From sequence record MZ501089: a stretch of 64,000 nucleotides of DNA; one strand, written 5' to 3'. The translations under genes and the position numbers were made by a program. Below the pieces are notes generated by a model. It did not search any database and was not told the origin of the DNA. It saw nothing but the letters and a program-made list of their open reading frames with translations. Positions 2,629-50,626 of the stretch are shown here, piece by piece (position 1 is the stretch's first letter; every line of letters starts with the position of its first letter). Source of the DNA: Escherichia phage KarlGJung.

Positions 2629-2994
2629 TTAAATATCAAATTCGTTAAGAACTACATCAAAGATTGCTTCCAAGTGCTCAGGTTTAGCTTTGTTACTCAG
2701 AATATGACGAATCCAAGTTTTAACTAAGAGTTTACGATTAGCACCATTCCAGCAAGGATGAGTCCCTAAATCGCGTTGGCGGAAATCATCATCCAGAGCG
2801 ATTTTGAAGTTGGAACCTTTCATCGTGATTGAAACCGTGATACCGTTTTCAAATCGCATATAAACGTAGTTAGGAGTCATATACTGTTCAATTTCGCATA
2901 CTGATCCGTTTTGATGTTTCCAGAGGCAAATAGTATCAATAGAACCTGCAATACCATTAGAAACATATTTACGTTCAAAGTTGATGTAGTTCAT
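2629..2994 (-). CDS. hypothetical protein (about 121 aa)
   Basis: ORF track frame; trimmed to ATG (MNYINF...) with GGAG Shine-Dalgarno; track start is TTG. Confidence 0.45.
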   Translation of the reverse strand: MNYINFERKYVSNGIAGSIDTICLWKHQNGSVCEIEQYMTPNYVYMRFENGITVSITMKGSNFKIALDDDFRQRDLGTHPCWNGANRKLLVKTWIRHILSNKAKPEHLEAIFDVVLNEFDI

Positions 2995-3061
2995 TTTATT
3001 CTCCAAGATGTTTAATTGCGGTACAGGTATATAATATCATATCCTGTACCAAAGTAAACAA

Positions 3062-3394
3062 TTATTTTACTACTTTCCAATGCTGCATGTCAAGTTTACC
3101 AACTTTTTTCATCTTCTCAATTAAGCGTTCTGCACGTTGGCGAGCTGTAACATAATGCCATTCGCCTAATTCATTTTGTTCAATTTTTCCAACGATTACT
3201 GTATTCAATTCATAAATCCAACCAGTAAAGAAATTATGAACTTGAATTGTAAAGGTGAAATCTGTTCCCATACCTTCTGTTGTTTCTACTTCAATAATAT
3301 CACCTTCAACTGCCATTAAGAACCACATAGTTTCATTATATTTACCATTGAAGCATTTAGTTTTAACTGCAGCGTTCAGATTAATCGTTTTCAT
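3062..3394 (-). CDS. hypothetical protein (110 aa)
   Basis: ORF track; ATG start with AAGGAG Shine-Dalgarno; early-type promoter directly upstream. Confidence 0.5.
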   Translation of the reverse strand: MKTINLNAAVKTKCFNGKYNETMWFLMAVEGDIIEVETTEGMGTDFTFTIQVHNFFTGWIYELNTVIVGKIEQNELGEWHYVTARQRAERLIEKMKKVGKLDMQHWKVVK

Positions 3395-47973: not shown

Positions 47974-48393
47974 TTATTCCTTAAAGTGTGCTTTCAGCAT
48001 TTGATACAAGGACCATGCCTGTTCATTATTTTCAATAGTAACTTTCATGACAGGAAATTCTGTGAAATCTTCTATTTGTTCTTGCTCTTCCTGCTCTTGT
48101 TCTTCAGCTGCCTGGTATGGATTTTCCACTTCATCAAAGAATTCAGCTTCGCTAGTAGAAAGCCAAATAAAATCTTCATCCAAAATATCTTTACCGGAGG
48201 ATAATGCCAATCTTCCAGTAGATGTCACAATTTTAGTAGGACGACCAAGATAGTCAATATCTATAACTTTAAAAGGTTCCATACCTAAACGTCGTGCATA
48301 AATTCCGTTTTCAGTATGGTCTTTAATAAAAGCTTCTTGAGCTTGTTTATTTTTAAATTGATACCATTTATTAACTTCAAATTTAATAGCCAT
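47974..48393 (-). CDS. hypothetical acidic protein (139 aa)
   Basis: ORF track; ATG start; contains an [10 protein letters not shown] acidic run. Confidence 0.45.
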
Positions 48394-48621: not shown

Positions 48622-48891
48622 TTAATTGAACAGTGGAGCGATGCGTTTCAGAAGAGTAGCAGCACCTTTGGCAAATTTTACATCATGAAAAACAGTTTCT
48701 TCTTCCGTTACAACACGAGCTTTAATGTTTTCACAATCCCAATTTTTGCGAACAATCTTCAAAAGCTGCAGTAAATCTTTACATTCAGCAATATCGATAA
48801 CACATCCACGAGAATCTTCCATTATCGCACGATAACCGTAAGCCATACCATAATCATTAAAAGATTGCTCGATGATAATTAAGTTTTCCAT
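48622..48891 (-). CDS. hypothetical protein (about 89 aa)
   Basis: ORF track frame trimmed to ATG (MENLIIIEQ...) with GGAGAA Shine-Dalgarno. Confidence 0.45.
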   Translation of the reverse strand: MENLIIIEQSFNDYGMAYGYRAIMEDSRGCVIDIAECKDLLQLLKIVRKNWDCENIKARVVTEEETVFHDVKFAKGAATLLKRIAPLFN

Positions 48892-48988
48892 TTTATTCTC
48901 CAAGTTATTTTCTGTATCAGTAGTTGATATTGATATAGTACCATAATCAACTACTGATGTATATAGTTTTATGAAAAAATTTTAAACT

Positions 48989-49480
48989 TTATGCATAGCG
49001 AGCTTTGCTGTAGTGTTTAATCCAACTTTCAGGAATGACTTTGTATGTTCCTAAAAATACCGCGTTGTATAACTTAACGCCATCTTCTACCCATTGATCG
49101 GTAATGTATGCACACATAGCGCGAGTACGGTTAACAACACCTTCCTCACCTTCAGTAAATTCAAACTCATAAGGAGCAACGAACTTGATAGCTTGACCGA
49201 GTTTCCACTTAAAGTCTACACCTACATGCGAAGTATCAATCGTTTCAATTCCTTTAGCGGGAACAGCTTTCAAAAACGCAGGCTCAAGAAATTTCCATCG
49301 AACATAACCAAACTGAGGTTTAGACATTCCATCTTTAGGAATGATACGCACTTTTACTTCAGAATCTTCATCTTTAACACCATGTTTAAGCTGAATGCTT
49401 ACGACTTCAACCAATTTTCCTGCTGCCTTAGAACGGGATTTATCAGATACACGAGCAATTTCACCGATATTAATATTCAT
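48989..49480 (-). CDS. hypothetical protein (163 aa), paralog of the next ORF
   Basis: C-terminal ITDQWVEDGVKLYNAVFLGTYKVIPESW closely matches the C-terminus of ORF 49554..50054; size and position comparable to T4 motB (uncertain). Confidence 0.5.
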   Translation of the reverse strand: MNINIGEIARVSDKSRSKAAGKLVEVVSIQLKHGVKDEDSEVKVRIIPKDGMSKPQFGYVRWKFLEPAFLKAVPAKGIETIDTSHVGVDFKWKLGQAIKFVAPYEFEFTEGEEGVVNRTRAMCAYITDQWVEDGVKLYNAVFLGTYKVIPESWIKHYSKARYA

Positions 49481-49553
49481 AATTATCTCTCACTTGTTAA
49501 AAAGATTTTATACTCCGCAGGACCATTATACTCTGGTCCCAAGAGTTTGTAAA

Positions 49554-50054
49554 CTAGCTTACACGAACATTAATCACTGCGCTGCGAGGAACTACAGAGT
49601 ACTCTCCAGCATGAACTACATTAAGAAGTTCAACGCCATCTTCAACCCACTGGTCAGTTACCCAACCGCCAACCGGATTCGCGAATGGACGACGAATATA
49701 AACTGCCTTACACAACAAATCAGTCGGGTCTTCAATTTTTTCAACTGGTGTTACATACATAGAAACTAAATCCATATCAATATGGGATTTTTCTTGTTCT
49801 TCTTTTTCAATTTCTGTCAATAAATTGAAATCTTCTTCATAGATGATGAATGATGATACCCTTCCATAATAGTTTCTAATTTCCATGTACACTGTACCAA
49901 TGAGAATTCCGCTATTAACACTAATAACAGTAAAAGGATATCCGCCAGTTGTACCAAGAAGTTCCCAAAACTTGCTATCAGTCGTATTCGACATTGTCTG
50001 GAAATCAATTTCAGATGGTTTTTTCATTTGATACGTAGTATTAATTTTAATCAT
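49554..50054 (-). CDS. hypothetical protein (166 aa), paralog of the previous ORF
   Basis: C-terminal VTDQWVEDGVELLNVVHAGEYSVVPRSA matches ORF 48989..49480. Confidence 0.5.
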   Translation of the reverse strand: MIKINTTYQMKKPSEIDFQTMSNTTDSKFWELLGTTGGYPFTVISVNSGILIGTVYMEIRNYYGRVSSFIIYEEDFNLLTEIEKEEQEKSHIDMDLVSMYVTPVEKIEDPTDLLCKAVYIRRPFANPVGGWVTDQWVEDGVELLNVVHAGEYSVVPRSAVINVRVS

Positions 50055-50064
50055 AATTTTCTCT

Positions 50065-50568
50065 TTAGTCTAAGGTAATAAAGCCTTTTAGTTCGGCATG
50101 AGATTTGCGGAACATTACTTGATGCCCGCCAACGATAACTTGGTCATCTGGTACTTCGTATACAGCGAGATAAAATCCTTTAGAAGATAATTCTTCCCGC
50201 TCTTCTCGTGTGAACCATCTCATCATATCATATTCGCTAGCGAAAGCAAAATGATAAAGAGCTATAAACCATCCGGGAATATAATGATCTACGCCTACAT
50301 ATTCTTCTTTCTCAAAGTTAGTATTAATTGCTATATTAGCATTTTTAACTAATAATTTGTCTTCGCGCGGAAGAGGAATTCTTTTATTATCATTACTATG
50401 ATGCATAAAATTAGGTCTGTCATAACCTACACGTAATAACCACTCTTCACTCCATGAATCTATTATACTTCTATATGGCGTTATTTGAACACAAAGATCT
50501 CGACGTATTGTTATAGCATCTTCATAATTAAGAATACTAAATGATGATTCAACACGATAAATTTTCAT
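50065..50568 (-). CDS. hypothetical protein (about 167 aa)
   Basis: ORF track frame trimmed to ATG (MKIYRVESS...) with GAGGA Shine-Dalgarno, downstream of an early promoter. Confidence 0.45.
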   Translation of the reverse strand: MKIYRVESSFSILNYEDAITIRRDLCVQITPYRSIIDSWSEEWLLRVGYDRPNFMHHSNDNKRIPLPREDKLLVKNANIAINTNFEKEEYVGVDHYIPGWFIALYHFAFASEYDMMRWFTREEREELSSKGFYLAVYEVPDDQVIVGGHQVMFRKSHAELKGFITLD

Positions 50569-50592
50569 TTTATTATCCTCAGTAGCTATGGT

Positions 50593-50626
50593 GTTATAAT
50601 ACCACAACTAACCGAGGAAGTAAACA
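50593..50626 (-). promoter_or_regulatory. early promoter
   Basis: Minus-sense GTTTAC, 18 nt, TATTAT. Confidence 0.5.

Follow-up and report, generated by a model that had tools for sequence, protein, structure and literature searches.

Adjacent genes, almost certainly motB and motB.1, of a T4-like phage with paralogous C-terminal barrels and unlike N-terminal domains

The closest described systems to the locus considered here are the MotB and MotB.1 proteins of phage T4. T4 MotB is an abundant, early, DNA-binding protein that binds DNA tightly, modified or unmodified, and without sequence preference; it coats DNA and derepresses H-NS-silenced genes, it alters the H-NS footprint, and both H-NS and StpA co-purify with it solely when DNA is present. 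The protein is toxic on expression, it upregulates 75 host genes (about one third of which had previously been assigned to the H-NS regulon), and it doubles the burst size (PMC6070864, PMC7827196). For MotB.1, Kim et al. 2025 (PMC12152347) placed the N-terminus in an LSm-like fold family together with GoF and Frd.2 (section 2.2), and reported that deletion of motB.1 gives no phenotype in laboratory conditions.

Much of what can be said about the pair is already in print. Patterson-West et al. 2021 (PMC7827196) assigned a KOW domain to the MotB N-terminus by HHpred and, again from HHpred, proposed the C-terminal domain as an OB-fold cold-shock DNA-binding domain. They also reported that MotB and MotB.1 share a C-terminal domain and have different N-terminal domains, suggested that one of the two genes may derive from duplication of the other (section 3.2), and found both genes in 40 other phage genomes; Pfam, too, already groups both proteins in PF17613. 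The shared C-terminal domain, the differing N-termini and the idea of duplication have thus been known since 2021, and because that paper set out all three, the shared module picked out by our sequence-only reading is not a new observation. The same reading held that no function was evident, which is wrong for one of the two ORFs, since it is MotB, a characterised DNA-binding protein that alters H-NS binding (PMC6070864, PMC7827196).

The window, by which we mean the whole 64-kb stretch of DNA that was analysed, is on sequence grounds a Tequatrovirus (T4-like phage); over the 2.1 kb that surrounds the pair it shares 98.4% identity with Yersinia phage phiD1, and this stretch has matches in 562 T4-like phage records. 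The genes stand in the T4 order: goF, cef, a 93-aa ORF, motB, motB.1, motB.2 and dexA. Two neighbouring ORFs of 163 and 166 aa had been reported from the sequence, and both are present, adjoining and in the same orientation on the minus strand; they are almost certainly the early genes motB and motB.1, with paralogous C-terminal barrels.

48989..49480, minus strand: motB, 163 aa (Pfam PF17613, phrog_1671; syntenic with T4 motB and phiD1 g010).
49554..50054, minus strand: motB.1, 166 aa (phrog_2333; syntenic with T4 motB.1 and phiD1 g011).
47974-48393, minus strand: goF, about 1.2 kb downstream of motB.1 and transcribed in the same direction.

Two neighbours of the pair deserve a brief description. 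The 93-aa ORF between cef and motB (48622-48903, minus strand) belongs to phrog_3720 and has a counterpart in phiD1 (g009); it has no Pfam match, and T4 has just a 170-nt gap at this position. On the other side, motB.2 (50065-50607, minus strand) shows no sequence relationship to MotB or MotB.1, its name notwithstanding; its sole PHROG match is phrog_1106, a family of unknown function, and it has no Pfam match. The program-called ORF of motB.2 uses a TTG start that lies 13 codons ahead of the annotated ATG, and the annotated protein, which is 167 aa long in phiD1, starts MKIYRVESS.

AlphaFold2 (AF2) models each of the two proteins as a pair of small beta-barrels and a disordered linker (mean pLDDT 81 for MotB and 78 for MotB.1). 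The parts of the two genes to which the following paragraphs refer are these:

49277..49480, minus strand: predicted N-terminal KOW-like small barrel of MotB, residues 1-68 (AF2; net charge +4, pI 9.6).
49010..49204, minus strand: shared C-terminal module of MotB, residues 93-157, with a 13-residue beta-hairpin extension (hhalign and AF2).
49025..49111, minus strand: 29-residue conserved core of the MotB module, AYITDQWVEDGVKLYNAVFLGTYKVIPES (BLASTP; tblastn coordinates).
49809..50054, minus strand: predicted N-terminal domain of MotB.1, residues 1-82, acidic, five strands and a helix (AF2), LSm-like or GoF-type.
49745..49810, minus strand: 66-nt in-frame linker segment of motB.1, present in the window and phiD1, deleted in T4 (DNA alignment columns 294-359).
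49746..49778, minus strand: linker motif DMDLVSMYVTP, within the 66-nt segment.
49563..49718, minus strand: shared C-terminal module of MotB.1, residues 113-164 (hhalign and AF2).
49581..49667, minus strand: 29-residue conserved core of the MotB.1 module, GWVTDQWVEDGVELLNVVHAGEYSVVPRS (BLASTP; tblastn coordinates).

The window MotB matches PF17613 (Modifier of transcription) over its full length (profile positions 1-162, 321.5 bits, E 1.1e-96, where the gathering cut-off is 25 bits), and phrog_1671 (MotB-like) at E 2.2e-76. It is 87% identical to the T4-type cluster (P0126) and has the locus and two-domain layout of T4 MotB, from which it differs by one additional residue and by a few substitutions in the hairpin insert; from that identity we infer that it belongs to the same DNA-binding, H-NS-modulating class. 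The N-terminal barrel is predicted to comprise strands at residues 8-11, 23-30, 41-46 and 56-61, a 3-10 turn, and a last strand at 65-67. The protein as a whole has a pI of 9.0 and its entire net charge (+4) lies within the KOW domain, and a basic KOW-like barrel fits the known tight, sequence-independent binding of DNA. The barrel resembles the KOW domains of Spt5 and NusG at the level of the fold. For small beta-barrels of the KOW, Tudor and 'translation protein SH3-like' kind in general (Spt5/NusG KOW, EF-P domain I, 53BP1 Tudor), the resemblance is one of fold only, at 10-20% identity and with no match to a solved structure at the level of sequence. The window MotB has no match to Pfam KOW (PF00467) at E<=1, and only a distant member of the family, P0242, scores high enough for Pfam KOW (24.8 bits, cut-off 22.3).

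The window MotB.1 matches phrog_2333 (E 3.9e-83), and matches PF17613 only at residues 122-160 (34.3 bits against the cut-off of 25), where profile positions 115-153 correspond to the module. Because residues 1-112 have no match to the MotB profile, either in the Pfam search or by hhalign, MotB.1 is a partial member of PF17613, belonging by its C-terminal domain only. It is an acidic protein (pI 4.6, net charge -10), the N-terminal domain of which is predicted to have strands at 7-10, 41-48, 54-60, 66-72 and 79-82 and a helix at 23-36 (pLDDT about 87-91). [quoted passage not shown] The N-terminal half gives a weak cross-match to the GoF family phrog_622 (residues 1-103, E 2.2e-4), and Foldseek finds a weak match to a GoF (E 0.011); an hhalign comparison of the MotB.1 family with the window GoF was not significant (E 0.14). 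Given the weak PHROG cross-match, and the position of goF a short distance downstream and in the same direction, this neighbouring gene may have been the donor of the MotB.1 N-terminus.

The window ORF is the ortholog of T4 MotB.1, one of the MotB homologs that Patterson-West et al. 2021 placed in 'Category 2'; N-terminal domain, module and location upstream of motB all correspond. It differs from T4 MotB.1 in being 166 aa long, its linker carrying an insert of 22 residues that is missing from T4. The 66-nt segment encoding this insert is modelled with low pLDDT (52-59). A regular-expression count found the pattern of the motif that it carries (D.D[VLIM]..Y..P) in 90 proteins of the family, of both KOW and non-KOW types, at residue 19, 72 or 93; the motif stands ahead of the N-terminal domain in the 180-aa forms and, in KOW-type forms, within the linker, and may be a conserved short linear motif. 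Homology does not stop at the conserved core but continues into this linker motif, since lost by T4.

Pairwise alignment of the two proteins, suggested as a check on the shared C-terminal segment, gave a significant result. BLASTP found a single significant segment, without gaps, between MotB 124-152 and MotB.1 130-158 (17/29 identical, 21/29 positive, E 6e-10), and the Smith-Waterman score of 99 was reached by none of 2000 shuffles of the MotB.1 sequence (mean 29.6, sd 5.0, maximum 57). The segment is real and the consensus first quoted for it agrees with the sequence, but 'almost identical' was too strong a description, because identity in the core is only 59% for protein and 56% for DNA. 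The homology is also wider than the proposed length of about 28 residues; when a 29-sequence alignment of MotB was compared with a 23-sequence alignment of MotB.1, hhalign paired MotB 93-157 with MotB.1 113-164 across 51 columns (probability 98.2%, E 2.7e-14), and the PHROG MotB profile matches MotB.1 at residues 79-162 (E 6.9e-16). The shuffles, the BLASTP E-value and the profile-profile probability led us to reject a similarity due to chance or composition. In the window, tblastn with both modules found no third copy (next matches E > 0.2).

Eight columns of the module are invariant in both families (L, F, D, W, E, L, N, V) and five more are nearly so (G, Q, G, G, V), giving the pattern L..F..D-x-W-x-E..L-x-N-x-V, in which D-x-W-x-E takes the form DQWVEDG in the window. 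The MotB module has a 13-residue insert, the hairpin, between its first two strands, which MotB.1 is without; in both proteins the module is net neutral. Both C-terminal barrels are modelled with four strands, a 3-10 turn and then a fifth strand (MotB: 97-110, 115-132, 135-142, 145-150, turn, 154-157, pLDDT 79-92; MotB.1: 117-122, 125-138, 141-148, 151-156, turn, 160-162, pLDDT 83-88). In these models the module looks like a small beta-barrel with an SH3-like strand order and not like an OB-fold, as had been proposed for MotB, since an OB-fold is a five-stranded barrel whose third and fourth strands are joined by a helix or connection, an arrangement that the predicted barrels do not show. A sequence profile search of solved structures with the module returned none at E<=10.

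The T4 reference sequence (NC_000866.4 / AF158101.6) annotates MotB.1 as a protein of 119 aa (motB.1 being 2792-3151 of the locus extracted from NC_000866.4), from which the window MotB.1 differs by having a complete module. Over a stretch of 526 nt, this reference departs from the re-sequenced T4 records MT984581 and KJ477684 at a single point, where it has one G more (ATTGGAAG versus ATTGAAG); this G falls inside the module, between the equivalents of window positions 49643 and 49644. Without the extra G, T4 motB.1 encodes 143 aa with the whole module, ending ...DQWIEDGVELLNVVHAGEYSVVPRSAVVAILN, and MT984581 annotates a 143-aa MotB.1. Its absence was established by alignment in MT984581 and KJ477684, and by length in 11 other T4-type records (further T4 isolates, T4T, RB55 and RB59), all of which have the same 525 nt. 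On the evidence of these records, it is this one surplus G that cuts the T4 reference motB.1 short. Kim et al. 2025 (PMC12152347) obtained their plasmids by gene synthesis (GenScript), cited NC_000866.4 coordinates for T4 sequences and described MotB.1 as a 13.8-kDa protein, from which it follows that their construct was probably without most of the shared module. No re-sequenced T4 record examined has the extra G, and work done with the 119-aa form may therefore not have tested the real motB.1 product.

Each of the two proteins, as modelled, carries two small beta-barrels on a disordered linker; the C-terminal barrels are homologous, and the N-terminal barrels are basic and KOW-like in MotB, acidic and LSm-like (GoF-type) in MotB.1. 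The reading of the module that we prefer, tentatively and with slightly less than even confidence, is of a barrel by which all members of the family would make a second contact with their nucleoprotein target, so as to bind cooperatively or to bridge. The N-terminal domain would choose what is bound, this being DNA for MotB and possibly RNA for MotB.1; the ligand of the module is the conjectural part of this proposal.

A somewhat less probable but still serious possibility, and the one first raised by the sequence-only reading, is that the module is a protein-protein unit, serving self-association, pairing of MotB with MotB.1, or docking to a host or phage partner, and that the N-terminal domains make all of the contact with nucleic acid. 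The neutral charge of the module fits this well, as does its acidic and aromatic invariant motif, with D, W and E on one strand; the positive charge of MotB is, moreover, all in the KOW domain, and the presence of the same module in so acidic a protein as MotB.1 is hard to square with the coating of DNA. The genes are neighbours, most genomes have both of them, and the module has been recombined with at least four N-terminal architectures, as would be expected of a self-contained adaptor. However, a DNA-independent interaction between MotB and H-NS has been repeatedly sought and not detected (PMC7827196, Discussion), no partner is known, and AlphaFold3 did not give confident homomultimers of MotB.1 (PMC12152347), although this was with the 119-aa form that lacks most of the module. 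A more particular version, in which the shared barrel serves for homotypic or heterotypic docking and brings the acidic, LSm-like MotB.1 to MotB-coated DNA or to H-NS complexes, we consider unlikely. Were it true, MotB.1 would be a modulator of MotB, and its function would have escaped detection so far because the published expression and modelling used the 119-aa T4 form.

Whichever role it plays, the module is found at 1475 places in 782 phage records, or about two per genome. When 1.84 billion representatives were searched exhaustively with the module profile, only 34 hits came back, of which the genuine ones were all small proteins of T4-like phages, and so the module appears to be essentially absent outside that group. 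Between the cores of MotB and MotB.1, third codon positions are equal at only 10 of 29 and the same codon is used for 8 of the 17 identical residues. Taken with the 56% identity of the DNA, these third positions point to an old duplication under purifying selection, and not to a recent one or to gene conversion; the shared module descends from one ancestral domain. The tandem duplication first suggested is sound as regards homology, and the shared segment is most economically explained by an old duplication. A recent tandem duplication, or gene conversion still going on between the neighbours, is a very improbable source of the similarity in place of long-term selection on a functional module; the adjacency and common orientation of the genes are what would be expected of it, but, besides the divergence of the DNA, MotB and MotB.1 form separate and internally diverse families across several genera (see also PMC7827196, Figure 2), and the 13-residue insert is fixed throughout the MotB family. 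A chance or compositional match, or an ORF that is not a real gene, is more improbable still, having nothing in its favour beyond the shortness of the segment first noticed, and running against the alignment statistics given above, the presence of both ORFs at full length in hundreds of phage records, and the published purification and study of the MotB protein (PMC6070864).

The module is joined to N-terminal parts of at least four layouts: a KOW-type (MotB); a GoF-like type (MotB.1, 144 or 166 aa); forms of 180 aa and 250 aa with extra N-terminal units; and a hybrid, in which a KOW N-terminus is followed by a MotB.1-type module. Because the most divergent members of the family consist of KOW and module, we infer that this was the ancestral layout, and that MotB.1 arose from a duplicate that gained a GoF-type N-terminus. 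The N-terminal parts had been described as divergent; they are indeed unlike, but they look like different domains (KOW-like against GoF-type LSm-like) that have been swapped in, and not like diverged copies of one domain; hybrid architectures are also present.

Several apparent relatives with long multi-stretch matches in the profile search were rejected as module homologs, P0243 and P0249 being Ig-repeat proteins, and P0245, P0246 and P0250 being phage tail-fibre repeat proteins. In P0246 and P0250 a short 'SGYATEQWVEDK' repeat mimics the module core 'GYITDQWVEDG', and at 29.3 bits P0246 exceeds the Pfam motB cut-off; this match is probably a coincidence of motif, by which PF17613 returns a false positive, and not a sign of homology. 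A 43-aa protein from the same search (P0244, MKIYRVESSFSILDYEDGVELLNVVHAGDFSVVPRSAVVAILN) consists of the first residues of MotB.2 followed by the MotB.1 module's final 27. Apparently, some phage has undergone a deletion running from motB.2 into motB.1 at a YED/EDG microhomology, and the product recalls the 29-aa RB69 peptide mentioned in PMC7827196.

Finally, the spacer of 73 nt between motB.1 and motB contains two overlapping signals:

49525..49553, minus strand: sigma-70-type promoter-like site, TTTACA-17-TATAAT (11/12), just upstream of motB; the best-scoring site of the region in the scan.
49512..49546, minus strand: 13-bp RNA/DNA hairpin, after the motB.1 stop codon; it overlaps the -10 element of the promoter-like site.

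The promoter-like site, which is invariant in T4, phiD1 and the window, may, as a consensus match, be the early promoter of motB. The hairpin has a minimum free energy of -21.5 kcal/mol (z -2.88), and one of 200 shuffles folds as well. T4, phiD1 and the window differ in its 3' arm (alignment columns 585-588) in ways that preserve pairing, and the interval 49512-49553 may combine an RNA structure at the end of motB.1 with the early promoter of motB.
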